64,000 nucleotides of DNA from an uncultured Candidatus Actinomarina sp. (GCA_902595195.1 CACJPC010000001.1:17173-81172); one strand, 5' to 3'. Numbered from the stretch's first letter, positions 10,454 to 57,046 are shown. Notes: generated by a model not told the origin, from the letters alone. Translations and numbers: made by a program.

Positions 10454-10486
10454 TATACATCACATCTTTTTAATAAATAATAGGTA

Positions 10487-10891: not shown

Positions 10892-10904
10892 GGTGCTATT
10901 GTAA

Positions 10905-12839: not shown

Positions 12840-12875
12840 TTTTTATTTAGTTTATTAATACCTACAATTAAATAA

Positions 12876-13097: not shown

Positions 13098-13125
13098 CTA
13101 TTTTCTTCGTTGTTAAGCTTGGATA

Positions 13126-13677
13126 ATGATAAGAATATTTGATTTTTTATTTTCTTTTTTTGGATTACTGGTTCTGTCTCCAGTTCTTTTAATTTTATTT
13201 GTGATTACTTATTTTGATACTGGTTCACCATTGTTTCGCCAAGAAAGAATTGGTAGATTTGAGGAACCTTTTACTCTAGTTAAATTTCGTACGATGCAGT
13301 TTGATACAGCTTCAGTAGCAAGCCACTTGGTCGACAAATCGGCCATAACACCTATAGGTTCATTCTTACGTAAATCACATCTAGATGAACTTCCTCAACT
13401 TTGGAATGTACTAAAAGGTAACATGAGTTTGGTCGGTCCTCGTCCAGCATTGTTTAGTCAGGAAAAATTACGAGATGCAAGAAAAAAACACGATGTTTAT
13501 AGAGTACGCCCAGGTATTACTGGGCTTTCACAGGTTAGTGGTCTTGACACTTCTACCCCCGAGCTACTTGCTGAAACTGATGCAAAGATGATTGAAAATT
13601 TATCTTTAATTGATTACTTTAAATACATTATCGCAACGGCTGGTGGAAAAGGTGGGGGTGACGCAGCTCAACGATAA
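13126..13677 (+). CDS. Undecaprenyl-phosphate sugar phosphotransferase (bacterial sugar transferase family, small PglC/WbaP-C type)
   Basis: N-terminal re-entrant helix, then SPLFRQERIG, KFRTM, DELPQLWNVLKGNMSLVGPRP and PGITGLSQV. Confidence 0.82.
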   Translation: MIRIFDFLFSFFGLLVLSPVLLILFVITYFDTGSPLFRQERIGRFEEPFTLVKFRTMQFDTASVASHLVDKSAITPIGSFLRKSHLDELPQLWNVLKGNMSLVGPRPALFSQEKLRDARKKHDVYRVRPGITGLSQVSGLDTSTPELLAETDAKMIENLSLIDYFKYIIATAGGKGGGDAAQR

Positions 13678-13680
13678 TTT

Positions 13681-24424: not shown

Positions 24425-24561
24425 TCGATGAGGAACTTAATTGTCATTAAGACCACATCCTACTCCACCTTACTTTCCTCTAAGCAGGTTGGCAGAATAA
24501 TTTCTTATTCACTCCTGATGCTTAATTTAATTTTATTATATTCCTGACATAAGACAAAAAT

Positions 24562-40212: not shown

Positions 40213-41958
40213 ATGGGTAAAGCGACATTTTTTGAGGGAGAATATCCAGAATCAAACACTTCTGAAAAAAAGGTTGCAGAAATTTTAAAAAAATTTTCAA
40301 ATGAATGGACAATTTTTCACTCTGTAAAAGTTCATGATCCCGAAACTGAAAAGCTAACAAATACAGAAATTGACTTTTTACTTATTCATCCTGCATATGG
40401 ATTTATACAGATAGAGGTAAAAGGGAAAGGATACCAAACAGATGAGGAGGGTAATTGGTTTATAAAAAAAGGACCAAATAAAGAAAAAGTAGCTTCTCCA
40501 ATCGATTCACTTGGTGAAAAACAATCTAAGATAATGAAAACTTTCCTGTATCACAATAAATCTATAAAGGGAGTAGATCTTTTTAATGTAAATGTACCCA
40601 TAATATCACTTATGTTTTGGACTGACTTAAAGCGTGAAGATCTACCAATTGCAGAAGTTTCAGAAGTAAATTCTTACTTTGTTGAAGATATATTTATTCC
40701 GGTTGAGAGTCTTGAAGAAAATTTGTTACAAAAAATGCGGAAACATATAAAAATAAATAAAAAAATAAAATTTGATAAAAACAAGTGGTTGTCTCCATTC
40801 TTAGGAAAACCCTTTGTTACAACAGTTATTACTATTTTTAAACCATATCAAAAGAGTTATAAATTAAAGTCAGCAACAGGTAGAACTAGTAATGAATTAG
40901 AACTTGCTACACAAGAACAGATTGAGCATTACAAGATACTAACTGACAGCAGTTACAAACGTCATCTTGTAAGTGGTCCTCCAGGAAGTGGAAAGACTGT
41001 GTTAGCTAAAGCTATAGCTAGGGAAAGAGCAGAAGATGGTAAAAAAGTACTTTTTATGTGTTTCAACAGGGCATTAGCTGATGAGATTGATTTTGAATTT
41101 AGGAAAGAAGAAAATATTGAAGTCTTGTCTATGTGGAAGTATTTTAAACTACTTGGGATATCGTGGGAAGATACTGTTGAGCATGAGGGTAAGAAAATTG
41201 TACTTCAAAAACTGCCTCCCCATATTTCATCAACGTATATAGCGAAATTGTTAGAAGAAAAAATAAATGATGCTGTAGATAATTTTAAATTTGACATTCT
41301 GCTTATTGATGAAGCGCAGGATTTTTCTGAAAAATATTGGGATTTTTTTAAATTACTTTTTGCTGAAAAGCCTGAATCAGCTTGGTATTTATTTTTTGAC
41401 ACAAACCAAGCTCTTACACACCCTGAATGGTCGCCTCCACTATTTGAAATACCTCATTCAAATTTACCCCTGACTTATATATTGAGATGCACTGAAAACA
41501 TATCTCATAAAGTACAGAATATATTTGAATCTAAGTTTGGCTTCAAGGGAATTACTGGAGAAGAACCTGAATTTTTAGTTGTAAATGAATCATCATGGGA
41601 CAACTCTTTGGAAGAATTAGTGAAGCTATTAAAAAATCTTATAGACATTGAACATTTTTCTCCAAAACAATTATCAGTGCTGGTGCCTCACTCACGAGAT
41701 ATAGATTTGGTAAAAGGTTATAAATATGATGAAGAAAGCTCTATTGAATCTAAAAAAATTAATGTATCTTCAGTGTATAAATACAAAGGATTAGAAAATG
41801 ATATTGTTATAGTCGTCATACCTAGCTGGGATTCGTTAAATGCCGATTATATACTTCAACCCCTTAGTCTTGCCTATGTTGGCTTTTCGAGAGCAAAGAC
41901 TAAATTATATGTCATAGGAGATAAAAAAATCCAAAAAGAAATAAATTGGAATAAATAA
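40213..41958 (+). CDS. NERD-domain nuclease fused to an SF1 (UvrD/AAA_11-12-like) helicase
   Basis: NERD: KKVAEILKKFSNEWTIFHSVKV...EIDFLLIHPAYGFIQIEVKG. Helicase: GPPGSGKT (Walker A), LIDEAQDF (Walker B), SSVYKYKGLENDIVIVV, GFSRAKTKLYV. Confidence 0.8.
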   Translation: MGKATFFEGEYPESNTSEKKVAEILKKFSNEWTIFHSVKVHDPETEKLTNTEIDFLLIHPAYGFIQIEVKGKGYQTDEEGNWFIKKGPNKEKVASPIDSLGEKQSKIMKTFLYHNKSIKGVDLFNVNVPIISLMFWTDLKREDLPIAEVSEVNSYFVEDIFIPVESLEENLLQKMRKHIKINKKIKFDKNKWLSPFLGKPFVTTVITIFKPYQKSYKLKSATGRTSNELELATQEQIEHYKILTDSSYKRHLVSGPPGSGKTVLAKAIARERAEDGKKVLFMCFNRALADEIDFEFRKEENIEVLSMWKYFKLLGISWEDTVEHEGKKIVLQKLPPHISSTYIAKLLEEKINDAVDNFKFDILLIDEAQDFSEKYWDFFKLLFAEKPESAWYLFFDTNQALTHPEWSPPLFEIPHSNLPLTYILRCTENISHKVQNIFESKFGFKGITGEEPEFLVVNESSWDNSLEELVKLLKNLIDIEHFSPKQLSVLVPHSRDIDLVKGYKYDEESSIESKKINVSSVYKYKGLENDIVIVVIPSWDSLNADYILQPLSLAYVGFSRAKTKLYVIGDKKIQKEINWNK

Positions 41959-41959
41959 C

Positions 41960-43414
41960 CTAAAGTAAGCTTGCTAGCCAATCATGCAGTAAATATAAGT
42001 TTTTACAATCTGCTTTGTTATATTCAATAATTAAATCTTTTAATTCATGTTCCTCATTAAAAAAATAATCTTCAAAATACTGAATTGATTCCATTCCAGA
42101 TTGTAGATCTTCAGTTCTATTTATACCTGCTAACTTTTCAACTGTTTTTAAGGAGTAAGAACTTGCTCCAATTAACAAAGAAGAATTGACTATTGTAAAT
42201 AAGTCTACAAAACATTTTTTTTCAATAAGTTGTTCTAATTCCTTTTCATACATACCAAAGTTCTGAGCAGATCTTCTCAGAGATGAAATTTCGTAACTAA
42301 AGTAGTGATAAAACTTTGCATCAGGATACAGTTCTAAATGTTCAAGTAATTTTTCTATAAAGCTAACAAAAGAATGTTTTTCTTCTTCTTCGTCATCAGA
42401 CCAGTAGTAAGTGAAACTATCATTTTTGTCATTACTCCAAATGCCATAGAGGTATTCAAAATTTCTACCAATAGTTAAAAACGGGTACCCCTCAAAATCG
42501 ATATATAAGTCTCTTTTTTTAGGTTTTAGTAATCCATTTAAAGATGGATCTTTTATTTCATATAAAATTTTATTTTCAGTTGAGTCATTAAGAAGCTGGG
42601 CTAATTTTTTGTACTTAATAAATGTAGCCTCGCCCATGCCGTCAATTTTTTCTAAATTAGTATTTTTTAAATCTTCAACAGTTTTGATGTCATTGTTTTT
42701 TAATTTCTCAATCTGTTTAGCTTGAATTCTATATAAAAGTTCGAGGCCGTTATCTCTAATCCAAATTTTTTTGGCTTCATCATCGTACTCTTGGAGTTGT
42801 TCCCCTTTCTTTGGGTATGGTGGCGCTTCAGGATCGTATGAATTGTTGAAGTCCATAAACTGATTTTTAAGTTCCGCATAGATTTCCTTGTGTTCATCAA
42901 ATTCAACTTTATGCATTTGCAAATCTCCAAGAAACAAAAAACATTCCGTTACTTGTTTTTTGGTAACTGTTTCAAGAATTTCTTTGTAAACAAATAGTTG
43001 CATAATATGTTCTGTTTTTATTGAAGATGAAAGCTTTGCATCAATTATGTGTAAGTTGTCATCTACTATTTTTACAAAATCTAATCTTCCGACGAAATCT
43101 TTTGAAGAAATATAAGGTTGAAAAATAACATCAGGGTTTTTCTCAAGTTCTTTTAAAAACACTTTGTTTGAAGAGTCTTTATTAGACATATCAACAACAT
43201 TTAAATTTTCTGAAATTCTATATTTGTCTTTTAAAACAACCTCATGCTCTTGCGCTTTTGTTAAAAGCTGTTTAGAAATTAATTTTGAAGTATTAATTTG
43301 TATTTTGTATTTAGCATCAATTTTTTTCTCATCTACAAGTTTGTTTGTTTTATTACACCAGTAGCTAAAAGGTGAATTGTAGAATCTAATAAATTCTGAT
43401 ACGCTATGAGGCAT
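41960..43414 (-). CDS. RecB/Cas4-like PD-(D/E)xK nuclease + RNase H-like exonuclease domain (TM0106-family architecture)
   Basis: N-terminal SVSEFIRFYNSPFSYWC, then GRLDFV...HIIDAKLSS...QLFVYKEIL (D...D/ExK...QxxxY). The C-terminal half has LYIDFEGYP (DxE exonuclease motif) and YNKADC. Confidence 0.6.
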   Translation of the reverse strand: MPHSVSEFIRFYNSPFSYWCNKTNKLVDEKKIDAKYKIQINTSKLISKQLLTKAQEHEVVLKDKYRISENLNVVDMSNKDSSNKVFLKELEKNPDVIFQPYISSKDFVGRLDFVKIVDDNLHIIDAKLSSSIKTEHIMQLFVYKEILETVTKKQVTECFLFLGDLQMHKVEFDEHKEIYAELKNQFMDFNNSYDPEAPPYPKKGEQLQEYDDEAKKIWIRDNGLELLYRIQAKQIEKLKNNDIKTVEDLKNTNLEKIDGMGEATFIKYKKLAQLLNDSTENKILYEIKDPSLNGLLKPKKRDLYIDFEGYPFLTIGRNFEYLYGIWSNDKNDSFTYYWSDDEEEEKHSFVSFIEKLLEHLELYPDAKFYHYFSYEISSLRRSAQNFGMYEKELEQLIEKKCFVDLFTIVNSSLLIGASSYSLKTVEKLAGINRTEDLQSGMESIQYFEDYFFNEEHELKDLIIEYNKADCKNLYLLHDWLASLL

Positions 43415-46400
43415 TTAAATCAATTAAGTTAACATCTTTGGATGATTTGCTTAATGCCTCAGCAAATACCTCGTCGTGTGTAAGAACAACAATTTGTGTT
43501 TCTGTTGCTAAGTCTTCTAAGACTTTAATAAAGCCTGCTTGTGAATTCCTGTCTAAATGATCTGATATATCATCGTAGAATAGTGGAAATCTAAAATCTG
43601 AATTTTTAAAAGTTTCAAGTTGCACTGCCATCCTTACTGCTAAGGCAATTGCTGCTTGTTCTCCATCACTGTGTAGGTGAAGCTCTTTATCTCTTGTATT
43701 TTCTTTAGATACTTGATATTTCACACTTAAAATATCTTCTTCTTCGTCAAACTCAACACCTGATAAATTTGGATTAATTTTATTGATGATGGAATTTATT
43801 CTCTTTTTTAAATCAAGTGTTATATTTGCTGTGTTCTTCAATTGCTCATCAACTAAATAAAGCGCTAATACTGTTGAAAGATATTGTTTTCTTGCTTCCT
43901 GCCACTCCCTCAAAATCTTATACTTTTCAGAAAGTAAATCTTCCTTTTTGTAATCCGGTTCTGTAAATAAAGCACCTTCTAAACTGCTAAGTTCTAGTTT
44001 TTTATCTTCTCTTTTTGATATTGTCTCTTCTAGTTCATCGTCTATTTCATCAGAATTGACTAAAAGAGTATCAATAGTAAGTTCACTTGATAATATCTTC
44101 TTTGCAAACTGATCTTTTTCAGATTTCTTAAAAAAGTTAAGCTCATTATCATCGAATAAGGTTTCTAGTTGTTCTAGTACTAAAATCACACTTTCTATTT
44201 CATCAAGAGATTCTGCATCATATGTGCTTAGGATGTTCTTATTCATTTTTTCAGCGTCTGTTATATATTTTTTGGATTCTTTGATTTCTGCTTCTAGTTG
44301 TTTTTTATTCTCAAGTTCTTCCTCTAACTTGGATATTGAATTGTTAAAATCTTCAATGTGGCTTTGAAGAGAAGTTCTTTCTAGTTCTTCTATTTCTAAA
44401 TCTTTACTAATAGGTTCTAGTAGTTTTTTTAGGCTTTTCTTCTTAGAGTTCAGATCTGTAGTGAGACTATTGAGTTCTAGATTTTGCTCTTCTAAATTTA
44501 ATGTGTATTGATTTAAATCAACTAAAAGATCTAATTGTTCTTCTAAATCTTCACTTTCCATAAAAGCTTTCGAAACTTTATATTTTTTTATTAATTCATC
44601 AGACGCTTTTTTAATTTCTGTGATGCCTTCTTTCTTTTTGCTTAATTCTTTTTCTAACTTGCTCTTTGAATCATTTAAGGTATTTAATTCCTCTTCTAAA
44701 TCTATTAAGTCATCTAACTCATCGAAATAATAGGAGAAATCCGAGTCTTTAAGGGTTGCTTCACCCAATTTATATTTTTTTATGATTGTCTCATTTTTCT
44801 TTAAAATATTCCTTACATCAGAGGTATTTGTCTTTTCTTTGAGTTTTAAAATTTTGATTTCTTCTTCTATAGACTGAAACTGTAATCTTGCTGTTAAATT
44901 TTTAACTAGATTCTCATAATCATCATGAATTAAAGACACCTTAGACATTATCAATGTCTCATTTTCCAGAATAATATCTAATAGATCTTCTAATTTTTTT
45001 ATATCTTTATAAGATTTATGAACTTTTTTGAAGGTCTTTTGATTTTCTTCTAAAATGCTCTGGATAGATTCTGTAATTGAAAATATATCATCTCCTCTAA
45101 AGTCAATATGCTGTGTACCGGCTTTGTCTTCATTCAATCTTTTTAGCTTTTTCTTTGTCTCATTAGCGTTTTGTTTAATGTCAAGAATTTCTTGATTGAG
45201 TTTTTTCAACAACGTTTTGTCTTTTGCGGTTATTTTTTCTTTTTTTAATTGAGCTATTGTCTGAGGAGAAAAACCACAACTATCTATGGACTCTTTAATT
45301 TCTTGTTTCTTGTTTTTTATATCGATTTTAAGTTCTGCTATTTCATCTACTAAAGGTTGTGAATCAAATTCATTGATTTTGTTTGAAATTGTAAGTATTT
45401 TGTTTTTATCACTTTCTTTTAATTTAGTTTTTTTATAGTACGCAACACTTGTTTTTGTCAGATTTAACTCTTCTTCTATTTCCGTTAAGGCAGTTTCTAA
45501 ACTTTCAACTTTATCTATTTGTAAAAGAACCTTTTCGTTTGCATTTTCATACTCATCAAATGCACTGAGATAGGTGTCTATTTCCAATTCTTTTAAATTG
45601 GTCTTTTTGACTCCACCAATCCTTTCATCACACTCTTCCAATTGGATTTTTAAATCTACTAGATTATTTCCCTTCACTTCAACCCCTGAAATAGATTCAT
45701 TCAAATTTTTATAATCCGATTCTATTTTTACGAGCTTATGGGTTTTATAAGAGTTGGTCTTAATGTTTTTCTTTTGAAGAGAATTTAGTGAATCTAGTAA
45801 TTCTCCAATATTTTCAATATGTTTTTGTTGAATTTGTATTTCTGTTTTTGTAGATTCCAGTTCACTAATTTTTGTATTCAAGCTTACTATGTCTTGCTTT
45901 AACTTAGCTATGTCCTCTTCATCATTTTTAGATAAATTATCTCTATTTTCTTTCTCTGTTTTTTCAAGGTCTTTTAGCCTTTCGTTTACATCTTTTAAAT
46001 TGTTTTGGAGCTCTCCAATTTTTGTTAGGTTTTTAGTTCTTGTTGCACTCTCTGTTTTATCTGTCAACTTAGTTGCATGCTCAGCATAAGACATAGCGGC
46101 TTCTTCAACATTTTGAGACATTGAACCTGACGCCACACTTATTAACTTTATTAAATCATTTCTTATGTTTTTATCTAACGAGATTGAACCTTGTATGTCT
46201 GAAATCATCTTTGTTGATGTAAAAAAGAAGTTTGAAAATAATCTTCGCATCTTCTCAACATCTTCTATTTGAGGATATATATTTTTTATCTGTTCATTAA
46301 TATTTTTGTCCCACTTACTTCTTGAAATTGAAAGCTTGTCTCCATTGCTGTCAATATTTAAGATAACCCCTCCGGATCCAATTTCTGTTCGTGACACTGC

Positions 46401-46601
46401 AGTTGGTCCGTCATAATCATATTGAAAATAGTGATCGCTTTTTGTAGGTATTCCAAAAAGCAAATGATAAAGAGACTTCACAATAGATGATTTGCCAGAA
46501 CCATTATCTCCAAGCAAAACATTTATATTAGGTTCGAATGAAATTGGCTTAAAGTCAGTTAGGGCACCATATTTTAGGATTGATAATTCTTCAAACTTCA
46601 T
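43404..46601 (-). CDS. SMC/Rad50/SbcC-like ATPase with a very long coiled coil (YhaN/SbcC-like)
   Basis: Walker A LLGDNGSGKSS at the N-terminus, then about 800 aa of heptad-rich E/K/L sequence. C-terminal signature LHSDGEQAAIALAVR, Walker B FPLFYDD and VVLTHDE. Confidence 0.78.
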   Translation of the reverse strand: MKFEELSILKYGALTDFKPISFEPNINVLLGDNGSGKSSIVKSLYHLLFGIPTKSDHYFQYDYDGPTAVSRTEIGSGGVILNIDSNGDKLSISRSKWDKNINEQIKNIYPQIEDVEKMRRLFSNFFFTSTKMISDIQGSISLDKNIRNDLIKLISVASGSMSQNVEEAAMSYAEHATKLTDKTESATRTKNLTKIGELQNNLKDVNERLKDLEKTEKENRDNLSKNDEEDIAKLKQDIVSLNTKISELESTKTEIQIQQKHIENIGELLDSLNSLQKKNIKTNSYKTHKLVKIESDYKNLNESISGVEVKGNNLVDLKIQLEECDERIGGVKKTNLKELEIDTYLSAFDEYENANEKVLLQIDKVESLETALTEIEEELNLTKTSVAYYKKTKLKESDKNKILTISNKINEFDSQPLVDEIAELKIDIKNKKQEIKESIDSCGFSPQTIAQLKKEKITAKDKTLLKKLNQEILDIKQNANETKKKLKRLNEDKAGTQHIDFRGDDIFSITESIQSILEENQKTFKKVHKSYKDIKKLEDLLDIILENETLIMSKVSLIHDDYENLVKNLTARLQFQSIEEEIKILKLKEKTNTSDVRNILKKNETIIKKYKLGEATLKDSDFSYYFDELDDLIDLEEELNTLNDSKSKLEKELSKKKEGITEIKKASDELIKKYKVSKAFMESEDLEEQLDLLVDLNQYTLNLEEQNLELNSLTTDLNSKKKSLKKLLEPISKDLEIEELERTSLQSHIEDFNNSISKLEEELENKKQLEAEIKESKKYITDAEKMNKNILSTYDAESLDEIESVILVLEQLETLFDDNELNFFKKSEKDQFAKKILSSELTIDTLLVNSDEIDDELEETISKREDKKLELSSLEGALFTEPDYKKEDLLSEKYKILREWQEARKQYLSTVLALYLVDEQLKNTANITLDLKKRINSIINKINPNLSGVEFDEEEDILSVKYQVSKENTRDKELHLHSDGEQAAIALAVRMAVQLETFKNSDFRFPLFYDDISDHLDRNSQAGFIKVLEDLATETQIVVLTHDEVFAEALSKSSKDVNLIDLNAS

Positions 46602-47941
46602 TAATCATCCTTGTAACTTAAGCCGTTTATTATTCTTGAAGCTATTTTTTTAGAATTGTTAATAATTTCTGAAGACTCTTGTTCATCTATTTCCTCTGAA
46701 ATAAACTTTTGTTCTGTGAGGGGAATAGATTTTGGCAAAATACCAAACTTTTTATTTAAATTTTTTTTAAATTCTTTTTTGGTTAAATGATCAAAAACAG
46801 TCTCGTTAATAAAGCTTTCTAAATCGTCTATATCTAGACCTTCTAGTTCTGTAACTATAGATTCTATTGCTTCTAGTGAGTCTTCTTTGGTAGAGGGTTT
46901 TAGTTTATTTATACATTTTATGATATTTAAATCTTCATATTCTAACTCCTCATTAAGACTTGTTAAGAGCTCTTCTTCTAAAATAAGGTTGTAATAGTCA
47001 GATTTTCCTTCTAATTCGACTGTTATCATCAAAAACTTACCTGGGTTTTCATTCTGAATTGATTCAATTTTTTTGACAGTATTATTAACAATCTCACTTA
47101 TGTCTTGATCTTTTTTGACTTCTGTTACTGCTGTAAAAAACCTAGCATCATCTAATGGCTTAAATGTTAACTCTGGTTCAAAGTTTTTTACTTCAACTAA
47201 ATAACACCCTTTTCCATCTGAAATATCATTACAAGTTTCAGACGGTTTAGTGCTTAGCCCCTGTGGATTTCCAGGGTAGACAGCTAAATATGGATCTTGA
47301 ATGAGAATTTCTCTTTTGTGGATATGTCCAAATGCCCAGTAATTATATTCACATTTATCCAACATAGCTTTATTTGTCGGAGCATAATTATGTGTTTCAT
47401 CAAGCTTATATGTATTTTCATAACTTGTATGAATTAAACCAATGTTGTAGAAATCTTTAACTGGTTTTGGAAACTTTTCTACAAGTTTTTCTGTTACTAC
47501 TTTTTTTGGGTAGCTTTGACCGTGGATAGCTACTTTAAAATTATCAATAGTAAAAGTATCTGCATTTTTAGCTGGAAATACATAAGTGTTTTCAGGTAGC
47601 TTTTTTGCTTCAAAAGATGTTAATAAATCAGAATCAACATCATGGTTTCCTAAAACAATGTATATGTCAATATTTAATTGGTCTAACTTTTTTAAAAAGT
47701 TTTTAAATTTTTTAAAATAATTGTCACTAGAGGGCATATCGTCATCAAATGTATCCCCAGCGAGAAGAATGAAATCTGGTTGCTCTTCTTCAGCTAAAGC
47801 AACTAGGTTGTCGAGAACCTTAATGGGAGAACGTCTTGCTCGAATTTCTTGGTGAGGATCCAGAAAGCTATATTTTTTTGTTATTTCTCGCCCTATGTGT
47901 AGGTCAGAAATGTGAATAAATTTAAATTCTTTACCCGCCAT
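46601..47941 (-). CDS. Mre11/SbcD-like calcineurin-fold metallophosphoesterase (YhaO-like)
   Basis: FIHISDLHIG, LLAGDTFDD, VLGNHD and FGHIHK are phosphoesterase motifs I-IV/V. 1-nt overlap with the SbcC-like gene. Confidence 0.8.
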   Translation of the reverse strand: MAGKEFKFIHISDLHIGREITKKYSFLDPHQEIRARRSPIKVLDNLVALAEEEQPDFILLAGDTFDDDMPSSDNYFKKFKNFLKKLDQLNIDIYIVLGNHDVDSDLLTSFEAKKLPENTYVFPAKNADTFTIDNFKVAIHGQSYPKKVVTEKLVEKFPKPVKDFYNIGLIHTSYENTYKLDETHNYAPTNKAMLDKCEYNYWAFGHIHKREILIQDPYLAVYPGNPQGLSTKPSETCNDISDGKGCYLVEVKNFEPELTFKPLDDARFFTAVTEVKKDQDISEIVNNTVKKIESIQNENPGKFLMITVELEGKSDYYNLILEEELLTSLNEELEYEDLNIIKCINKLKPSTKEDSLEAIESIVTELEGLDIDDLESFINETVFDHLTKKEFKKNLNKKFGILPKSIPLTEQKFISEEIDEQESSEIINNSKKIASRIINGLSYKDD

Positions 47942-48009: not shown

Positions 48010-48507
48010 ATGGTTAAGGTAGAAACAAGAATTCAACTAGCAATTAAAGAGATTCTTGAAGAAGAAACATGGAAACACCTAAAAACAAACAACAATTTCG
48101 ATAAGGTTCTATCTATTGCTTCGTTAATTGAACCTTTCAATGAAGGTCCTGATGTTTGTTATGAAGACTGTAGAGGTATGTGTTTTGGTTGTTACGATGG
48201 CTACAAATACTCTCTTGATTGGAGAGCAAATTATAACCTTAGAACAAAAAAACCTTTTAGTCTAATCACAGTTCACGAACTTGATATGTTGATTGATGCT
48301 TTAGATGACAAGGTACACAAATGTAATGAGTGGTGTTCAGATTTTATTTGTTATAAATATAAAAGCAAAACATGTTCAGTCATGGATTGTCATAATTTAT
48401 ATATTAAAAAAAACAAAAATTTAAAGTATTGTTCCTGGTGTAGACAGCAAAGCTGGCCAATTTATAGAAATAATTATTTGATTAAAAATGGACTACACGA
48501 AATCTAA
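48010..48507 (+). CDS. Cys-rich hypothetical protein (165 aa)
   Basis: CYEDCRGMCFGCYDGY and CNEWCSDFICYKYKSKTCSVMDCH...CSWCRQ. No family recognised. Confidence 0.45.
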   Translation: MVKVETRIQLAIKEILEEETWKHLKTNNNFDKVLSIASLIEPFNEGPDVCYEDCRGMCFGCYDGYKYSLDWRANYNLRTKKPFSLITVHELDMLIDALDDKVHKCNEWCSDFICYKYKSKTCSVMDCHNLYIKKNKNLKYCSWCRQQSWPIYRNNYLIKNGLHEI

Positions 48508-48600: not shown

Positions 48601-49539
48601 ATGGCAGAAAAAAACTTAAGTAGAAATCTGAACGCAGCAAAAAGAAATAAAGAAGACGAATTTTATACTCAGCTAGATGACATCAATAAAGAACTGCAAC
48701 ATTACAAAAAACATTTCAAAAATAAAATAATTTATTGCAATTGTGATGATCCAAGAATTAGTAACTTCTTTAATTATTTTTCTTTAAATTTTGAACATCT
48801 TGAGTTGCAAAAACTAATCACAACATGTTACAAGAACCAAGATTGGAATTTATTTTCAACGGACCAGTCGGAAAGTGCGGTATATCTTGAATACGAAGGT
48901 GATAAGAATAATAATAGAGTTCCAGATCCAGAAGAAATTGGTGTACATAAATTAAAGGGAGATGGTGACTTTAGAAGTGATGAGAGTATTGAATTGCTCA
49001 AACAAGCAGATATTGTAGTTACCAATCCACCATTTTCGTTATTTAGAGACTACCTTGATCAGTTAATCAAATATGATAAAAAGTTTTTAATCATAGGTAA
49101 TATAAATGCAGTCTCATATAAGAACTGTTTCGAATATATTAAAGCAAATAAATTGTGGTTGGGCTACAACACTGTCCGACACTTTCAAAAACCTGATGGA
49201 AGCATGTATGAAACAGCAAGATCGTTTTGGTATACGAATTTAGATATTAAAAAAAGACATGAAGACTTCGTTCTATATAAGAAATATAACAAAGATGAAT
49301 TTCCAAAATATGATAATTATGACGCTATCAATGTAAATAAGGCTGTTGATATACCTCTTGACTATGACGGATTAATGGGTGTGCCTATAACTTTTCTTGA
49401 TAAATATAATCCTGAACAATTTGAAATTATTGGTATTGATAGACAGTTGGTTGAAGAAAAAACTGGAAAAGTAAGCAGGTTTTTTATAGATAACAAAGAA
49501 ATATATGCAAGAGTTATTATTAAGAATAAAAGATTATGA
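48601..49539 (+). CDS. N6-adenine DNA methyltransferase, EcoRI-methylase-like family (copy 1)
   Basis: N-terminal DEFYTQLDDINKEL...YCNCDDP...FFNYF and catalytic DIVVTNPPFS (NPPF at 49021-49035). The family was assigned from recalled PF13651-type N-terminal motifs. Confidence 0.8.
   Translation: MAEKNLSRNLNAAKRNKEDEFYTQLDDINKELQHYKKHFKNKIIYCNCDDPRISNFFNYFSLNFEHLELQKLITTCYKNQDWNLFSTDQSESAVYLEYEGDKNNNRVPDPEEIGVHKLKGDGDFRSDESIELLKQADIVVTNPPFSLFRDYLDQLIKYDKKFLIIGNINAVSYKNCFEYIKANKLWLGYNTVRHFQKPDGSMYETARSFWYTNLDIKKRHEDFVLYKKYNKDEFPKYDNYDAINVNKAVDIPLDYDGLMGVPITFLDKYNPEQFEIIGIDRQLVEEKTGKVSRFFIDNKEIYARVIIKNKRL
48832..49049. repeat. 218-bp block 100% identical to 49767..49984 (direct repeat, offset 935 bp)
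   Basis: Compared base by base. It also explains the two identical antisense track ORFs (48828..49025 and 49763..49960). Confidence 0.97.
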
Positions 49540-50537
49540 CAACTGGTAGTAATAATTCAAGCTTACGAAAAGCTGCAGCAACAAAAGCAGACGAATTTTA
49601 TACTCACCTTCCTGACATTGAAAAAGAACTTCAACACTATAAACCTCACTTTAAAGATAAAATTGTTTATTGCAATTGTGATGATCCAAGAATTAGTAAC
49701 TTCTTTAATTATTTTTCAATTAACTTCGAACATCTTGGATTAAAAAAGCTTATTACAACCTGCTATAAGAACCAAGATTGGAATTTATTTTCAACGGACC
49801 AGTCGGAAAGTGCGGTATATCTTGAATACGAAGGTGATAAGAATAATAATAGAGTTCCAGATCCAGAAGAAATTGGTGTACATAAATTAAAGGGAGATGG
49901 TGACTTTAGAAGTGATGAGAGTATTGAATTGCTCAAACAAGCAGATATTGTAGTTACCAATCCACCATTTTCGTTATTTAGAGAATATGTAGATCAGTTA
50001 ATCAAATATGATAAAAAGTTTTTAATAATTGGGCATCAAAATGCGATTACTTACAGAGAAATATTTAAGTTATTAAAAGAAGATAAAATATGGCTTGGCA
50101 ATTATGTAGGTGATATGTCATTTAAAGTTCCAGAAACTTATGAGGAAAAGAAAACAAGATTCTGGATTGATGAAACTGGCCAAAAATGGAGAAGTATGGG
50201 AAATACATGCTGGTTTACAAATCTAGAAATTGAAAAGAGAGAAGAAGAATTGATACTTTACAAGAAATTTAATAAAAATGATTTTCCATTTTATGACAAT
50301 TACGATGCAATTAATGTTGATAAAGTTTCGGATATTCCTTTGGATTATGATGGTTTTATGGGAGTTCCCATAACATTTTTACACAAACATAACAAAAATC
50401 AATTTGAGATTCTTGGCATAATGAATACAGGAGAAGAAAATAAAGGAATACGACTTCCAAATACTCCTCATGGTAGACCGTTGGTAAATGGTAAAGAGAA
50501 GTATTTAAGGGTATTAATAAGAAATAGAACATTATGA
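49536..50537 (+). CDS. N6-adenine DNA methyltransferase, EcoRI-methylase-like family (copy 2)
   Basis: DEFYTHLPDIEKEL...YCNCDDP and DIVVTNPPFS (49956-49970). ATGA overlap with copy 1. The C-terminal half differs from copy 1. Confidence 0.8.
   Translation: MTTGSNNSSLRKAAATKADEFYTHLPDIEKELQHYKPHFKDKIVYCNCDDPRISNFFNYFSINFEHLGLKKLITTCYKNQDWNLFSTDQSESAVYLEYEGDKNNNRVPDPEEIGVHKLKGDGDFRSDESIELLKQADIVVTNPPFSLFREYVDQLIKYDKKFLIIGHQNAITYREIFKLLKEDKIWLGNYVGDMSFKVPETYEEKKTRFWIDETGQKWRSMGNTCWFTNLEIEKREEELILYKKFNKNDFPFYDNYDAINVDKVSDIPLDYDGFMGVPITFLHKHNKNQFEILGIMNTGEENKGIRLPNTPHGRPLVNGKEKYLRVLIRNRTL
49767..49984. repeat. 218-bp block 100% identical to 48832..49049
   Basis: See the partner repeat. Confidence 0.97.
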
Positions 50538-51643
50538 AAATACAACCTAAAAACATAAAAATCTCAGATTTAGTTAAAGAATATGTCAACAATGACGAAG
50601 AAGGTGTTATCGGATATGGAGGAAAATTAAATATTAGACCTAAATACCAAAGAGAATTTGTATATGGAGAAAAAGAAAGAAATTTAGTTATAGATACAGT
50701 TTTCAAAGGATTTCCCTTAAGCGTGTTTTACTGGGCAGTTAACGATCAAGAGGGATATGAGATAATTGATGGCCAACAAAGAACTATCTCAATATGCGAA
50801 TTTGTTGCAGGTAACTTTTCCATAAAGCATCCTCTAAATAACAGTGACGTCTATTTTCACTCTCTTCAACCTGATGAAGTAAAAAAAATATTAGATTATA
50901 AAATTTCAGTATATTTATGCGAAGGTGAAGCCAGTGAAAAACTTGCTTGGTTTGAAGTTATTAATATAGCCGGAAAAGTACTTACAGATCAGGAACTAAG
51001 AAATGCAGTATATTCTGGACCATGGGTTTCTGATGCAAGAAAATACTTTAGTAAGACTAGGTGTTACGCATCTAACGTTGCTGGTGATTATTTAAGTGGA
51101 AGAGCAATAAGGCAAGACTATCTTGAGACAATAATTAAATGGATAAGCAATAATGATATAAATAAATATATGAGTAAACATCAGTATGATAATGATGCAA
51201 GCGAGCTAAAAGAGTACTTTGATAATGTATTTGAATGGGTAAAGAGAATTTATCCGAACTACAGAAAAGAAATGAATGGCATTGATTGGGGAATTCTTTA
51301 TAACACGTATAATGTACTTGAATTTGATTCAGAAGATTTAGAGAAAAAGATTCAAGAGCTTTACAAAAATGAAGAAGTTACAAAACAAAAAGGTATCTTT
51401 AGTTACTTAATTACAGGAGATGAAAGACATTTAAGTCTTAAAACATTTAATCCACAAGTAAAAGCACGGGTTTATGAAAAACAGTCTGGAATATGTATTC
51501 AGCCAGATGGTTGTGGAGAAGAATTTGAAATATCTCAAATGGATGCCGACCACATAATTCCATGGAATAGAAACGGAAAAACTGTAGAAGAAAATTGCCA
51601 ATTACTCTGTGCTTCTTGTAACAGAGCTAAGAGCGATCGGTAA
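50534..51643 (+). CDS. DUF262 (ParB/Srx-like NTPase, GmrSD-N type) fused to a C-terminal HNH nuclease
   Basis: RPKYQREFVY and IIDGQQRT (DGQQR at 50768-50782) are DUF262 hallmarks. The C-terminal DADHIIPWNRNGKTVEENCQLLCASCNRAKSD is an HNH motif (from 51542). ATGA overlap with methylase copy 2. Confidence 0.8.
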   Translation: MKIQPKNIKISDLVKEYVNNDEEGVIGYGGKLNIRPKYQREFVYGEKERNLVIDTVFKGFPLSVFYWAVNDQEGYEIIDGQQRTISICEFVAGNFSIKHPLNNSDVYFHSLQPDEVKKILDYKISVYLCEGEASEKLAWFEVINIAGKVLTDQELRNAVYSGPWVSDARKYFSKTRCYASNVAGDYLSGRAIRQDYLETIIKWISNNDINKYMSKHQYDNDASELKEYFDNVFEWVKRIYPNYRKEMNGIDWGILYNTYNVLEFDSEDLEKKIQELYKNEEVTKQKGIFSYLITGDERHLSLKTFNPQVKARVYEKQSGICIQPDGCGEEFEISQMDADHIIPWNRNGKTVEENCQLLCASCNRAKSDR

Positions 51644-51665: not shown

Positions 51666-52187
51666 TTAATAATCCTTGTCTCTTGGAGTTAGGGGTGCCC
51701 CATATTGTCTATATGGTGCTGCGTCTTCAATTCTTTTTTCACGCGCAATTCTCTCTTTATTAGTTTCTTTTAGATTCGTATCCTTATAATTCTTGATTCT
51801 CTGAAACTCTAAATTAAAAAATTCTAATTTTTTACTAAGCTCATCTTTATTAATTCTCAAGTTAGTTTGCTCACCCTGAATCTCGTCTAAAGTAAGTTGA
51901 ATGAGTTTTTTTAGTTTTTTAAGTAAACGAAGAAATTTTTTATCTGTTGATGTTGTTTTAAGTTGCTCAATCTCAGCCAGCCTATTTAAGAACTCATTTA
52001 CAATCTTTTTTAAACTGTCTTCATGAATAATTTCCATATCCGTCATGTTTTTTCCATATTTGATAAGATTTTCACGTCTCTCTTCATTCTCAACAGATTG
52101 TTTTTCTCGAATTAATCTCTCTTTATCAGTTTCACGGATACCAGTTTCTAACCAGTTTTTCATTTTCTCTTTTTTATTTTTATCCAT
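51666..52187 (-). CDS. Charged coiled-coil protein (173 aa), unknown function
   Basis: E/K/R-rich heptad-like sequence. Divergent from the Hsp70-like operon. Confidence 0.45.
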   Translation of the reverse strand: MDKNKKEKMKNWLETGIRETDKERLIREKQSVENEERRENLIKYGKNMTDMEIIHEDSLKKIVNEFLNRLAEIEQLKTTSTDKKFLRLLKKLKKLIQLTLDEIQGEQTNLRINKDELSKKLEFFNLEFQRIKNYKDTNLKETNKERIAREKRIEDAAPYRQYGAPLTPRDKDY

Positions 52188-52212: not shown

Positions 52213-52524
52213 ATGGTCATGAAAAGTAAAACAAAAAAGTTAAAAATAGATTTTAAAAACATTGAGACAGATCTATTAAAAATCAACAAAAGTATCTCTG
52301 ATCTATATCAAAAAATAGACCATCTTGATCAAGAAGAGTTGAGGATTGAAATAAAGAACTTATTTCAATCCTCTGAGATAAGTATCATTGATGAGTATGA
52401 AGGCTTTGATAATTGTTTTGTTACATCAGTTGGTACGGAGAATAAAATTAATAGACCTGCTTTTGTGGATAAGTACGGCAACTGTATTGTACAGGGCTAT
52501 AGAGAAGTCACAAAGAAAAGTTAG
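52213..52524 (+). CDS. Hypothetical protein (103 aa), first gene of the Hsp70-like operon
   Basis: Ends 3 nt before the Hsp70-like start. No motif recognised. Confidence 0.45.
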   Translation: MVMKSKTKKLKIDFKNIETDLLKINKSISDLYQKIDHLDQEELRIEIKNLFQSSEISIIDEYEGFDNCFVTSVGTENKINRPAFVDKYGNCIVQGYREVTKKS

Positions 52525-52527
52525 ATT

Positions 52528-54778
52528 ATGGGTAAGCAAGCTTTAGGGTTTGATTTTGGAACATCCAACTGTACAGTGTCAATTTTTGACTCTGATAAAG
52601 GGATAGTCGAAACACTACCTATCTCAAACTATTCAGACACAAAAAAGCGAAGCCAAGCTAATCAATCTTTATTCCCTTCAAAGGTGGGCCTCAATGATGA
52701 ATTAGAATGGGTATTTGGTGATGATACAAGAAATTGTGAAAGAGATTTTGTATGGGATAACTCTAAAAGACTATTAGAACACAACACCCCAATTTATAGA
52801 GGAGGAGTTCACAAGAAACCTGTCTGGGTTGCAATAGGGATAATGGGTGGAATATTTAAAGAACTAAAAAATCTATCAATAAAAACATCTTTACCCATGG
52901 TAATTACAGTGCCAGCTAACTCATACAGTACACAAAGAAGTCTCACAAGATTGGCAGCAGAGACTTATAACTTTAATGTAGATCAGTTAGTATCTGAGCC
53001 ATGCGCTGCAGCATTAGGTTGCTATAAGAACATAGAGAGTTTAAAGAATATTTTAATAGTTGATGTGGGTGGCGGCACAACAGATATAGCATTAATTGAA
53101 AATGATTTTGGTACGTTAAAAGAGATAGCAATTGAAGGCTTGAAGAGATTTGGCGGTATAAATATTGATCAAAAATTATATGAGGCGTATAAAGAAGAGT
53201 TTGAATTATCTACTGATTCAGAGAAATTACTTTTTAGAGATTTACTTGAAGATGTAAAAATAGAGCTGTCATCCAAAAAGAACTCCAAATTAATTTTTTA
53301 AAGACAAAGTAGTAGACATCACAAGAGAAAACCTTGAAAAATTAATTAAAAAAGATATTGAAAGTTTAGATAAAACTATTGATAAGGTTTTAAAAAAAGG
53401 TAAGGTCGAGTTAAAAAATGTAGAAGCTGTTTTACCTATTGGAGGCTCATCTAATATTCCTGCAGTAAGAGAGCTTTTGAAAAAAAAGTTTAAATCAAAA
53501 TTAATAAATCTTGATTTTGATGAGGCAATTACTGCAGTTGCAAAAGGTGCAGCAATAGCTTCCGCTATAAACACTGGAATTATTAAAGATCTTAACTTTC
53601 AACAGTGTCTGGAGCATAGTGTTGGTCTCAGGGTCTGGAGTGGCACTAAAGAAAATAAGATTTTTAAAGCCATGTTAGAAAAAGGTTCTGTATTTCCAGC
53701 ATCCGCAGTAGAAACTTTTATATCAGATACAGATGAATCTATAGTTGCTTTATATGAAAGTACTTCAGGCAAGTTAAAAAACAACGATACAAAATTAATT
53801 ATTGAAAAAAGAATTAAAACTGGAGTTATGCATGTTGATGTTGAGCTCACTTATGATGACGATGGAAAAATAGATATTAAAACATACAACATTAATAAAG
53901 ATGAGAGGGGAAAGTTAGGAGATTTAGGAGATAGTAGTAAAGACTCGCAAGGATACATCAAAAATTTACAAGCTAAATCTCGTGAACAAGGAATGGACTT
54001 AAAGATAGATAGTATCAAATATGTTGACTCACAATTAAATCAAAAGAAATTAAAAGAATGGTCAAACGAATTCCTGGGGAAATATAAAAAATATAAAAAA
54101 GTATCTGAGAAGGTAAAAAATATTTTTAAAAAAGAAGCAAAGGATGATTTTATTTCTATTAATAATGAAGACATCTCCAATGTGGTTGTTGAAGATAGTC
54201 CTGATATGGAGTTTGGAAGTACAAACGATGCATTTATGTATGCTGAAGGTATTTTAAAACGCACCTTAAGACTTGTTTTTACATATGCAGGGTATGAAAA
54301 AATACATCATTTTAGAGGTATTCATGACTTGTTAAGTGAGCGTGATGTAATTTACAAAACAAGAGAAAGGTTGTTTCCAGAGCAGCCATTAGACGACAAA
54401 AGATGGTTAATTAAAGTACTTCTGAAGTCAAGATATTTACAAAATCTAGGACATACAAACACTAATGAGGTTAAGGGAAGCCTTGACTCTTTAAGAACAA
54501 TTCTAAATAAATTTAGCCATGGAGTCAGATCTGGTTTTTTTTCAGAAGTATTTAATGATTCTTTAGATGAATATGACTCACTAATTGAAAGCAATATATT
54601 AGAAGAGGTATACAAAGAATCAACATATACAGCACAAGATGTTGTTTTACTTTCATCAAATATAGTTTCGTTAATCTCTTCTTTAATTAACACAAAAGTA
54701 TACACGGGACAAGAGAGAGAAGATCTAATACAAATGCTAGAAAGTATGCATACTTTAGTACAAACATATAAAGAGTAA
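52528..54778 (+). pseudogene. Hsp70/DnaK-like protein (NBD + beta-sandwich SBD) with a non-chaperone HEPN-like C-terminal domain, split by a one-base frameshift in a T6 run (53294-53299)
   Basis: Frame 1: ALGFDFGTSNCTV (phosphate-1), VSEPCAAAL, LIVDVGGGTTDIALI (phosphate-2, 53062-53085). After the shift, frame 2 opens at 53294: FKDKVVDITRENLEKL..., LPIGGSSNIPAVRELL, DEAITAVAKGAAI, then the SBD-like HVDVELTYDDDGKIDIKTYN. The tail has RYLQNLGH (54431-54454) and LRTILNKFSHG. Removing one T restores about 750 aa. Confidence 0.7.
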
Positions 54779-54783
54779 AAAAA

Positions 54784-55569
54784 ATGATTTTCAAAAAAAG
54801 AAAGCTTGAAAACCTTAAACTATCTCAAAAGGAAGAAATAGATAATTTAAAAAATGAGCACATCAAATTAAAAAAAAAGCTACTTGATGATTTTGATAAA
54901 GAATCAAAAGAATTAGATACAAGATTAAAAGCAGATATCAAAGATACAAAAACATTACAGAAAAAAGAAATAGATAAAATTAAAAAATTGCATAAGAAAA
55001 CTGTTGAAGAACTATCTAGTAAAAACGCAGAGGAATTGGAAAAAAAGAAATCAATTTATAGACAGAAATTAGAAGATTGGAAAGTTAAAGCTGATAAACA
55101 TTTGCAAAATGAAATCGATAAGTACAAAAAAAACTTAGAAAAAGAACAAAAGAAGAAAGAAGAGCTTGAAAAACTAGAGATAGAAAAGAAAATGGAGAAA
55201 GAAATCTCTTCATTTCTAGAAAAGTTTGAGAAACAAAAACAGAGTGAATTAAAAAAACTAGAAAAAAAGTACCAGGATACCGAACTCCTCACAAAGCAAT
55301 TACAAAAATATTTCTCCGACTTTTTGGGAAAAGAATATAGTGATGTTTCTTTTAAAGAACTTGAAAAAATATTAAAAAATGAACTTGAAGAACTTGTTGA
55401 CGAAATTGATGAGGTTAAAAAAGAAATAGAAAATAAGAATGAAGTAGTTAAACAATTTAATGAGTTTGCTAAAGAAATGGATTATTTACATGAAGAAATA
55501 CTAGACAAAAAGAATGAACTTTATGAACTAAAACAAGCAATTAGAGCACTTAAGAAAGAAAGCAGTTAG
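54784..55569 (+). CDS. Lys/Glu-rich coiled-coil protein (261 aa)
   Basis: Almost entirely K/E/L heptads. Starts 5 nt after the Hsp70-like stop. Confidence 0.5.
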   Translation: MIFKKRKLENLKLSQKEEIDNLKNEHIKLKKKLLDDFDKESKELDTRLKADIKDTKTLQKKEIDKIKKLHKKTVEELSSKNAEELEKKKSIYRQKLEDWKVKADKHLQNEIDKYKKNLEKEQKKKEELEKLEIEKKMEKEISSFLEKFEKQKQSELKKLEKKYQDTELLTKQLQKYFSDFLGKEYSDVSFKELEKILKNELEELVDEIDEVKKEIENKNEVVKQFNEFAKEMDYLHEEILDKKNELYELKQAIRALKKESS

Positions 55570-55647: not shown

Positions 55648-57046
55648 CTATAAAGGTTCTCCATTAAGATAGTTTCTTTGATCATAAATTTGACCATTTT
55701 CATGATATTTTATATGTAAACCTTCTTTCTTGCCTTCTTTAAACTTTCCTTCTTCCCATAACTGACCATTTTCGTAAAAATATTCTAAATAACCATTGAG
55801 TTGATCATTTTTCCAACTGCTTTTTTCCATCAACTGACCATTTTCATAAAACTTTTTTAAATGGTCCGTGTAACTCCCCGTTTTGATATGTTCCCTCAAT
55901 CCAAATTTTGCCACTTTCGTAAAATCTTTTATATGGTCCTGTAAGAAAAAGGCCATCATAAACTCCTTGAAATTCTAACTGACCATTCTCGTAATATCTT
56001 TCTACAACACCCTCTCTGAAAAGTCCGTTTAAGCTCTGAAATCCCTTTTCCCGTAAAATACCATCTTCATGGTATTTTTCATAAGGACCAGTTTTCTCAC
56101 CATCCTTATAATTTCCCGTCTCAATTAAGTTGCCTTTTTTACTATATATGTAGTAGGGTCCATCTATTACATGGTCATCCTTGTAGAATATTTTTTCTTT
56201 TAACACACCATTGTCATGGAAAGTTTCTTTTAGTCCATCAAGAATATTTTCTTTAAAAGAAGTTTTTATATTTAAGTTACCATTTTCATGATAGGTTATA
56301 TCCAAACCATCTTTCTTGTCCTCTTTATAAATTCCCTCTCTCTTAATCTGACCATTTTCATAGTAGCTTTCATATGGGCCCTCTTTTAATCCGTTTGCGA
56401 TTGTATATTTTGTATGGATCTGACCATTTTCATAGTATGTTTCATATGGGCCATCTTTTAGAACTCCTTTTGAGTAAACAGCTTTTCTGATTAGTTGACC
56501 ATTTTCATAGTAACTTTCGTAAGGGCCATCGAGCCTTGAATTATATACTTGGCTCTCTCCGAATCCATAAGTCTTATCAATATAATCTGTCTCTTCTTCA
56601 GTAAATTTTTTATATATGTAAGACCCTTTTTCTTCTAATTGACCATTTTCATAATATTTTTCAAATGCACCTACTGTGACTTTATTTTTGTATTGACTTT
56701 TTTCTTCAATCTGACCATTTTCATAAAAAAGTTCATATGGGCCATCTTTTAATCCATTTTTGATTATAAATTTTTCTTCAATCTGACCATTTTCATAGTA
56801 ACTTTCGTAAGGGCCGTCTTCTAATACTCCTTTTGAGTAATTGAACTTGAATTTTATTGAACCATTTTTATGGTAACTTTCGTAAGGGCCGTCTTTTTCA
56901 CCATTTTTGATTGTAAATTTTTCTTTTAGTTTTTTTTCAGTTTCAGAGTAATAATTGACAACAATACCGGTAAATGGAGATTTAGAATCAAGCTCATAAG
57001 CAACATTATCTCTCCAATCAAGATCGTAATATTCAATTTCTTTCAT
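55648..57046 (-). pseudogene. MORN-repeat (MORN_2 / YwqK-like) protein, split by a one-base frameshift in a homopolymer (plus-strand T6 55853-55858)
   Basis: More than 15 copies of the YYENGQ(I/L)xxK...G..DGPYE(S/T)Y unit. Track ORFs 55844..57046 and 55648..55959 overlap. Removing one base turns ...HGPFKKVL* into ...HGPFKKFYENGQL, continuing the repeat register. Confidence 0.7.

Follow-up and report, generated by a model that had tools for sequence, protein, structure and literature searches.

An atypical Hsp70 with a unique helical C-terminal domain and its small partner as a candidate defence module

The stretch of DNA analysed here, 64,000 nucleotides in length (CACJPC010000001.1:17173-81172; hereafter the window, with positions counted from its first letter), carries a gene for an Hsp70-like protein in which an ATPase domain and a beta substrate-binding domain are followed by a unique all-alpha C-terminal domain, and directly upstream of it a gene for a small partner protein. 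In the window the Hsp70-like gene is split by a single inserted base. The parts of this unit, all on the forward strand, are as follows.

52213..52524, + strand: small partner gene, 103 amino acids (aa), found in 47/47 loci with upstream sequence
52528..53301, + strand: 5' part of the split Hsp70-like gene, encoding residues 1-257 (most of the ATPase domain) and ended by a premature TAA
53294..53299, + strand: T6 homopolymer in which one inserted base splits the Hsp70-like gene; relatives have T5
53300..54778, + strand: 3' part of the split Hsp70-like gene, read in the +1 frame and encoding residues 258-749, from the remainder of the ATPase domain to the C-terminal domain
53597..53893, + strand: interdomain linker (residues 357-367) and beta substrate-binding domain (to about residue 455)
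54221..54775, + strand: unique all-alpha C-terminal domain, approximately residues 565-749, about 185 aa

The listing of open reading frames (ORFs) and a three-frame translation show that 52528-53301 and 53300-54778 are the two halves of a single gene, the T6 run giving rise to a TAA stop at 53299-53301. Deletion of one T yields a 749-aa product with a gene span of 52528-54778, in agreement with the initial annotation, which had described a frameshifted gene of about 750 aa once repaired, and this product is 98-100% identical to unbroken metagenomic proteins. Its 3' portion runs from the ATPase remainder through the linker, the beta substrate-binding domain and a lysine/glutamate-rich (K/E-rich) linker to the unique C-terminal domain. 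DNA comparison with the five closest relatives checked (L015-L018 and L001) revealed T5 in place of T6 in every case, all reading AATTTTTAAAG, and the 3.4-kb region otherwise matches L015 at 99.1% identity, this one gap being the only one and no second lesion being present. Across 50 related loci the gene is one unbroken ORF wherever the contig permits and is split in the window copy only, which speaks against its being a consistently disrupted relic. Because the rest of the window copy is intact and 99.1% identical to a complete allele, the lesion would be either a very recent inactivation or a homopolymer sequencing error. The frameshift context at 53290-53305 reads AUU-UUU-UAA-A. Scans of the module locus for promoters, terminators and repeats gave nothing above chance.

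The repaired protein matches the Pfam family HSP70 (PF00012) over residues 124-538 with E=4.8e-36 (cut-off 20.6 bits), and a profile of the family searched against PDB sequences retrieved DnaK, Hsc70, BiP and SSB structures at E values of about 1e-38, with matches reaching chain residues ~500-600. Comparison by hhalign with E. coli DnaK placed residues 2-454 onto DnaK 1-490 with a probability of 99.8%, a span that takes in the ATPase domain, the linker and the beta substrate-binding domain. We counted residue conservation over 73 distinct full-length family members and found D9, G11, T12, K80, E157, D179, G181, T184, D186, G305 and G306 to be invariant (73/73); by the same alignment D9 corresponds to DnaK D8, K80 to K70, E157 to E171 and D179 to D194. 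The 5' fragment thus holds the motifs DFGTSN (D9, G11, T12) and D179-GGGTTD186, and all four segments that had first been picked out by eye, namely FDFGTSN, DVGGGTTD, IGGSSNIP and TYDDDGKI, are present and align to the corresponding DnaK motifs. By these matches the protein is a member of the Hsp70 superfamily and a genuine fusion with a non-canonical C-terminus, and it is expected to hydrolyse ATP because the catalytic residues are invariant in the 73 family members.

Beyond the ATPase domain, the interdomain linker has the family-specific form F-x-QCLEHSV-x-L, in which C360 and H363 are invariant among the 73 sequences. The stretch from the linker into the beta domain aligns to DnaK 'VLLLDVTPLSLGIE' through 'FDIDADGIL', and the alignment of the beta substrate-binding domain runs through DnaK 389-490. 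In the region of the lid, the Pfam match extends to residue 538 (profile position 573/599) and the hhalign alignment ends at residue 454; residues 565-749 are unrelated to any Hsp70 lid in the PDB profile search and in Foldseek. The initial annotation had about 230 aa in place of the lid; the unique domain itself is shorter, about 185 aa (565-749), and follows a K/E-rich stretch. Scores against the NCBIfam DnaK and HscA equivalog models reach 95-112 bits, compared with cut-offs of 620-1019, and the protein is not an orthologue of either.

Two further features of this core were observed. C70 and C159 are likewise invariant (73/73), C159 lying in SEPCAAA where DnaK has a threonine (EPTAAA), and the segment 53597-53632 (residues 357-368) holds the linker QCLEHS with C360 and H363; that these four residues might form a metal or redox site at the interface where the ATPase domain docks onto the linker is pure speculation. 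In clade D (L011, L012, L149-L151), a 55-aa insertion follows the first strand of the beta domain (alignment columns 391-446), at what we take to be the position of the substrate-contacting loop of DnaK.

The C-terminal domain is preceded by a variable K/E-rich stretch (within ~520-565) that is partly of low confidence in the structural model. Residues 520-749 were modelled with AlphaFold2 (AF2) on an alignment of 15 sequences; the mean predicted local distance difference test (pLDDT) score is 76, with most core-helix blocks above 90. In this model, D623 and R625 (both 73/73; 54395-54403) stand at the start of an upstream helix, N660 (72/73; 54506-54508) at the end of the helix formed by domain residues 127-142, and H664 (73/73; 54518-54520) just beyond that end, ahead of a low-confidence loop; R656 is R in 64 sequences, H in 8 and K in 1. 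The (near-)invariant residues of the domain, D623, R625, N660 and H664, are all polar. Residues conserved in this way commonly mark an active or ligand-binding site, and a catalytic or binding role is possible.

Foldseek with the C-terminal model found nothing in the PDB at E<=0.001, the best match being bromodomains at E=0.37 with template modelling (TM) scores below 0.3, and in BFVD the best E value was 0.16, with TM scores almost all below 0.3 and one of 0.39. A PDB sequence-profile search with the domain returned noise only, and the C-terminal region was without a match in PADLOC, a collection of models for many defence systems, in NCBIfam and in PHROGs. A profile search of 1.84 billion representative proteins yielded 11 hits, all of them members or fragments of the Hsp70-like family. 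The domain thus appears confidently folded in the model, without a known relative and confined to the Hsp70-like family. The 11 hits include no other architecture apart from one stand-alone copy of 164 aa. This copy (P0128) lies on a 1.4-kb contig of 25% GC (L152, 107-1314), keeps both the D-x-R and the N-x3-H, and is preceded by a 206-aa K/E-rich ORF; because of it, on a single low-coverage contig, the domain would seem able to exist without the Hsp70 part.

The small partner is the other constant element of the locus, lying directly upstream of the Hsp70-like gene in every one of the 47 loci with upstream sequence available, separated from it by 3 nucleotides (nt) in the window and overlapping it in other clades. 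All 53 homologues are about 100 aa long, with R81, A83, D86 and G95 invariant. The AF2 model (mean pLDDT 84) consists of helices at 2-37 and 40-53 and a six-strand beta domain at 57-100, and matched nothing in Foldseek; Pfam and NCBIfam likewise gave no match to the protein. We considered it as a miniature GrpE because of its 'RPA-x-V' motif and its helix-plus-beta layout. At a descriptive level the two are alike in having a long N-terminal helix, a short helix and a small beta domain, in adjoining an Hsp70 gene, and in the likeness of 'RPA-x-V' to the C-terminal 'R-x-AMV' (RAAMV) of GrpE. However, the order of the motifs is reversed, the partner is about half the size of GrpE, hhalign against E. 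coli GrpE gave a probability of 0.1%, and neither Foldseek nor Pfam nor NCBIfam supported the idea, which we rejected as a claim of homology.

Two K/E-rich proteins and a restriction-modification (R-M) module adjoin the unit in the window.

54784..55569, + strand: downstream K/E-rich protein, 261 aa, a clade-specific accessory gene
51666..52187, - strand: divergent K/E-rich protein, 173 aa, a clade-specific accessory gene
48601..51643, + strand: type II R-M module, adjoining island context and not part of the module

The spacing is as the initial annotation gave it, with the 103-aa ORF ending 3 nt upstream of the Hsp70-like gene, the 261-aa gene starting 5 nt downstream and the 173-aa gene divergent. 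The 261-aa protein is 43% K+E without any Pro or Gly, and, on composition only, presumably forms a coiled coil or one long helix; K+E make up 29% of the 173-aa protein and Pro+Gly 4%, and the label 'coiled-coil' rests on composition for both. Neither matched a family in Pfam, NCBIfam or PHROGs, nor the 173-aa protein in PADLOC; weak PADLOC hits of the 261-aa protein to ZorA, LmuB and MkoC (E 0.004-0.99) were judged to be artefacts of coiled-coil composition. No J-domain or GrpE match was found with Pfam or NCBIfam in the three neighbours, as had been noted before. Homologues of the 261-aa protein (160-261 aa) follow the Hsp70-like gene in clade A, defined as at least 65% identity to the window Hsp70-like protein, and are absent from clades B-D; clade A' (L013, L138) has two paralogues. 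Besides the window, 24 clade-A loci carry the 173-aa protein, for which the other clades gave no homologue. Thus, of the proposed trio of Hsp70-like, coiled-coil and small-ORF genes, the small ORF holds throughout, whereas the K/E-rich proteins belong to close clades only. In clade B (L006-L010, L140-L144), a convergent gene for a 310-aa protein without a family match overlaps the 3' end of the Hsp70-like gene, and its product may be a third component peculiar to that clade.

Ratios of non-synonymous to synonymous substitution rates (dN/dS) of 0.07-0.28 indicate purifying selection on each of the four genes in the window. The partner lies at 0.09-0.12, the 173-aa protein at 0.15-0.20 and the 261-aa protein at 0.18-0.28; within the Hsp70-like protein the core lies at 0.05-0.09 and the C-terminal tail at 0.11-0.26, the tail being less constrained.

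The family, with 73 distinct full-length relatives, is confined to marine metagenomes and single-cell genomes. A scan of species-representative genomes gave only unrelated Hsp70 and actin-like genes among the matches listed. A viral origin was tried and rejected, IMG/VR holding only generic giant-virus Hsp70s with at most 29% identity over long matches and lacking the tail, with the exception of one 67-residue fragment at 45% identity. GC content is 30-36%, related contigs carry UPF0182 and PASTA-kinase genes, and one lysA homologue, 85% identical, bears the name 'Acidimicrobiaceae bacterium'; because of these features, compared with published descriptions (PMC7771536), the host would belong to the marine low-GC Acidimicrobiia, probably to Ca. 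Actinomarinales. We found no description of the module family in the literature.

We then considered the surroundings of the module. The R-M module comprises two EcoRI-like adenine methyltransferases (Pfam EcoRI_methylase, E=1e-120 and 1e-137) and a GmrSD_N(DUF262)-HNH endonuclease, and PADLOC assigns MTase_II and REase_II to it (E=1e-123). The methyltransferase genes are in tandem (48601-50537) and share a 300-nt segment at 89% identity (48649-48948 and 49584-49883), their ends being different; together with the endonuclease gene (50534-51643) they look like a type II system with two methylases. The region from 35.9 to 51.6 kb further holds a PLD-SNF2 helicase, a NERD-UvrD helicase, a TM0106-type RecB-like nuclease, an SMC/Rad50-like ATPase, an SbcD-like phosphoesterase and a Cys-rich ORF. 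Beside the module in relatives, the R-M slot is filled by Bsp6I and a Dcm-type methylase or by nothing, and in L001 a BglII endonuclease gene lies further upstream. In other clades the module stands beside DarT-Macro and a PD-(D/E)xK protein, or beside a NERD helicase. In the clade C locus L146, positions 8942-14464 encode an Aminotran_5 cysteine desulfurase, a DUF4007 protein and a 1140-aa protein without a Pfam match, and a NERD helicase is also part of the context; we take the desulfurase and the DUF4007 protein to be SspA/SspB-like, the set resembling an SspABC-type phosphorothioation system.

The alleles of the module differ far more than the gene beside them. The lysA product of the window is 97.6% identical to that of L146, compared with 40.6% for the Hsp70-like protein and 24% for the partner; against L011 the figures are 86.6% for lysA and 33.9% for the Hsp70-like protein. 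An exact look-up of the window lysA had nothing on record. In loci that a homologue search found with lysA at 85% identity the module is absent, and DndB and PD-(D/E)xK genes or aquaporin/metabolic genes are present instead. Because divergent alleles or no module at all stand beside near-identical lysA, the pattern is the signature of a replacement island downstream of lysA with balanced, divergent alleles, and a vertically evolving housekeeping gene does not behave in this way. Recurrent defence neighbours in a variable region and presence/absence polymorphism thus go together here as in a defence island, clade B being the exception. The earlier expectation of a defence-gene neighbourhood held for the R-M genes of the window and for BglII, Bsp6I/Dcm, SspA with DUF4007, DarT-Macro and NERD helicases in relatives, but failed for clade B, which has a metabolic setting.

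Several side observations concern the same surroundings. A four-gene block at 40213-47941, made up of the NERD-UvrD helicase, the TM0106-family nuclease (RNase_H_2 and Cas4-like), the 1065-aa SMC/Rad50-like ATPase and the SbcD-like phosphoesterase, recurs beside the module in relatives; the NERD helicase of L146 is only 24% identical to that of the window and adjoins a divergent Hsp70 allele. The Cys-rich ORF, of 165 aa (48010-48507), lies between the SbcD-like gene and the methylases and matches nothing in Pfam, PADLOC or NCBIfam; at its position relatives have a 150-aa ORF. On the other side of the module, two MORN-repeat ORFs of 400 and 103 aa (55648-57046, - strand) overlap by about 116 nt in different frames, where relatives have only a 100-aa MORN gene, and the overlap may be another frameshift or a repeat expansion. 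Elsewhere in the window, a SAM-I/IV riboswitch lies at 24427-24526 on the minus strand (Rfam RF01725, scoring 55 bits where the gathering cut-off is 41.1), and ARAGORN found no tRNA genes in the 64 kb.

Taken together, these comparisons suggest that the module is a lineage-restricted accessory unit, the conserved core of which is two translationally coupled genes. One encodes a small protein modelled as a helical hairpin with a small beta domain. The other encodes an atypical Hsp70 with a catalytically complete ATPase domain, a Cys/His linker, a DnaK-like beta domain and, in place of most of the lid, an all-alpha domain carrying the (near-)invariant cluster D-x-R ... N-x3-H. Deeply divergent alleles of the unit appear to replace one another in company with R-M, phosphorothioation-like, DarT-Macro and NERD-helicase genes. 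Our preferred explanation, to which we give a probability of roughly one half, is that the locus is a defence or conflict module. In such a module, the ATP-driven Hsp70 clamp would bind a foreign or aberrant polypeptide, and this binding, through an ATP-dependent conformational change, would control the C-terminal domain as an effector or adaptor. The 100-aa partner would serve as a dedicated regulator or co-factor of the ATPase cycle, and the K/E-rich helical proteins would be additions made in some clades. The clade D insertion in the beta domain and the faster evolution of the tail relative to the core are hints only toward such a mechanism.

A number of points weigh against a defence or conflict module. 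The association with defence genes was judged on about six context types, not on statistics, and most contigs are short. The clade B copies lie among ordinary metabolic genes without an obvious defence neighbour, and one locus (L163) shows that the island position can carry non-defence cargo. In addition, the C-terminal domain has no known effector fold, and PADLOC found nothing beyond a weak partial hit in the ATPase domain. That hit, to PDC-M61B, has E=5e-06 and covers residues 145-324 against positions 320-519 of a 588-position profile, without any match to the partner model, and the locus does not appear to belong to the PDC-M61 system.

A more specific version of the defence reading, which as a whole we consider tentative and unlikely to be right in every part, is a chaperone-gated immune module of a new type. 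Here the clamp would recognise a phage or misfolded polypeptide and, with the 100-aa partner tuning ATP turnover in place of a J-protein or GrpE, would unleash a helical effector. The D-R-N-H site would then be a new nuclease or nucleotide-processing centre, analogous and not homologous to HEPN, and the divergent lysA-island alleles would be kept by phage-driven balancing selection.

Instead of a defence system, the two genes could encode a specialised chaperone pair serving a lineage-specific client or stress, in the manner of HscA/HscB or HscC/DjlC, and the adjacent K/E-rich helical proteins might be its clients. An intact ATPase site and beta substrate-binding domain, a tightly coupled partner gene, strong purifying selection, the setting of clade B among housekeeping genes, and the fact that HscA and DnaK are the best NCBIfam similarities would all fit such a pair. 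Nevertheless, those similarities amount to about 110 bits against cut-offs of 620-1019, no J-domain or GrpE was detected, and the supposed clients are missing in three clades. Moreover, presence/absence and alleles only 34-41% identical beside a lysA that is 87-98% identical are unlike what housekeeping genes display, and we consider a non-defence chaperone pair unlikely.

The initial annotation had proposed a clamp that recognises a polypeptide, perhaps from a phage, and releases a HEPN effector. Spelled out, the C-terminal domain would be a divergent HEPN metal-independent RNase which the clamp releases or activates on binding a phage protein, bringing about abortive infection. In HEPN domains the motif is Rx4-6H, with a polar residue directly after the Arg, it sits at a helix end or in the following loop, and some families lack the motif Arg and use other basic residues (PMC3710099). 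An all-alpha domain in a defence-island context would suit this proposal, as would an N-x3-H placed where a helix gives way to a loop of low confidence, and an acidic/basic pair upstream (D623-x-R625) that might take the part of those other basic residues. In contrast, the conserved motif here is [R64/H8/K1]-x3-N-x3-H, with Arg replaced by His or Lys in 9 of the 73 sequences. Of the two segments put forward as HEPN motifs, RYLQNLGH (635-642) is retained in the close clade only, and in LRTILNKFSHG only N660 and H664 are conserved. Because the residue before N660 is hydrophobic (L, T or I as recorded across the family) and R656 is 7 residues from H664, outside the Rx4-6H spacing, the domain does not appear to be a member of the HEPN superfamily. 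The HEPN/DUF4145 identity also went without support in every search made: a Pfam scan of 15 members (the window and 14 homologues) at E<=10 contained no HEPN-clan family and no DUF4145 (PF13643), HEPN structures were not among the Foldseek matches listed for PDB and BFVD, where nothing was better than E=0.16, and neither PADLOC nor the PDB profile search gave a match to the domain. HEPN-like chemistry is still conceivable, whereas a divergent HEPN RNase as such is in our view quite improbable.

The window copy might also be a decaying pseudogene without a present function in this genome, as a one-base insertion followed by a premature stop would suggest. However, both halves are otherwise intact and close to a complete allele without further lesion, and the family as a whole is intact. 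Furthermore, a +1 slip of tRNA-Phe at the stop (UUU-UAA-A) would, by inference only, yield the exact wild-type sequence ...LIF-KDK..., and leaky expression from the T6 allele is conceivable; decay to a pseudogene is thus very unlikely. Alternatively, the locus could encode filaments of the actin fold or something akin to a partition system, in which an ASKHA ATPase and coiled-coil adaptors would maintain a mobile island. Lower-ranking matches in Pfam, NCBIfam and PHROGs to MreB, ParM, FtsA and a family named 'partition protein' might point that way, as might the K/E-rich helical neighbours. We find this hardly credible, given that Hsp70 is the best match by far (E=4.8e-36 compared with 1e-17 for MreB) and that the alignment spans the linker of DnaK and its beta substrate-binding domain, both of which are missing from actin-like proteins. 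In addition, no integrase, transposase or replication genes were seen in the loci examined, and the family is absent from viral contigs.

If the locus is a defence or conflict module, it would add a candidate defence function to Ca. Actinomarinales, which rank with the smallest and most abundant bacteria of the sea and in which, according to a published report, neither toxin-antitoxin nor CRISPR systems could be identified (PMC7771536). The locus also marks the DNA beyond lysA as an island in which one set of defence cargo replaces another. If the module is not defensive, it would still represent an Hsp70 working without a J-protein or GrpE, and as such be of interest to chaperone biologists.

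Finally, we compared the module with the known systems that it most resembles. With DnaK, HscA and HscC it shares the ATPase fold, all catalytic motifs, and the order of linker and beta-sandwich domain. In contrast to them, identity is only about 25%, scores fall 6-9x below the NCBIfam orthologue cut-offs, and the linker is F-x-QCLEHSV-x-L where theirs is VLLLDVTPLSLG. The hhalign likeness ends at DnaK residue 490, with a weaker Pfam and PDB-profile likeness to ~540, after which come the K/E-rich linker and the 185-aa helical domain, and the place of J-protein and GrpE is taken by a novel 100-aa protein. With HEPN effectors (DUF4145, Abi families, Cas13/Csm6, RnlA) it has in common a small all-alpha domain in a defence context, with an invariant His at a helix end, a polar residue four before it and an acidic residue upstream; it differs in lacking a profile or fold match and in having the Arg of Rx4-6H off its canonical position. 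The GTPase-centric conflict systems with HSP70 and GrpE, which also occur in Actinobacteria (Kaur et al. 2020, PMC7159879), likewise place an Hsp70-family component in a predicted NTP-dependent conflict system. Their GAP1-N2 GTPases, GrpE, DnaJ- or TPR-fused FNIII and, sometimes, tubulin were not detected among the neighbours here.

CnuD and CnuCD of CoCoNuT type III are Hsp70-like units of a conflict system predicted by comparative genomics (PMC11090510). Like the present protein, CnuD joins an Hsp70-like ATPase and substrate-binding unit to a helical C-terminus and has coiled-coil neighbours and restriction systems nearby. CoCoNuTs differ in their McrB-like NxD GTPase (CnuB) and McrC/DUF2357 protein (CnuC), neither of which was found among the neighbours in the window or in related loci. 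CnuD itself, set apart here by its description and not by its sequence, is described as having degenerate ATPase motifs and a HEAT-like tail, whereas the motifs are invariant here and Foldseek found no repeat-fold match. Hsp70-like units in prokaryotic conflict systems, both CoCoNuT and GTPase-centric, are predictions so far, and the module described here is the simplest such case: it consists of two genes, its ATPase is intact, and its unique domain carries four polar residues that are (near-)invariant. This simplicity makes the idea of a chaperone as immune sensor directly testable with few point mutants. The module family is uncharacterised and narrow in distribution.

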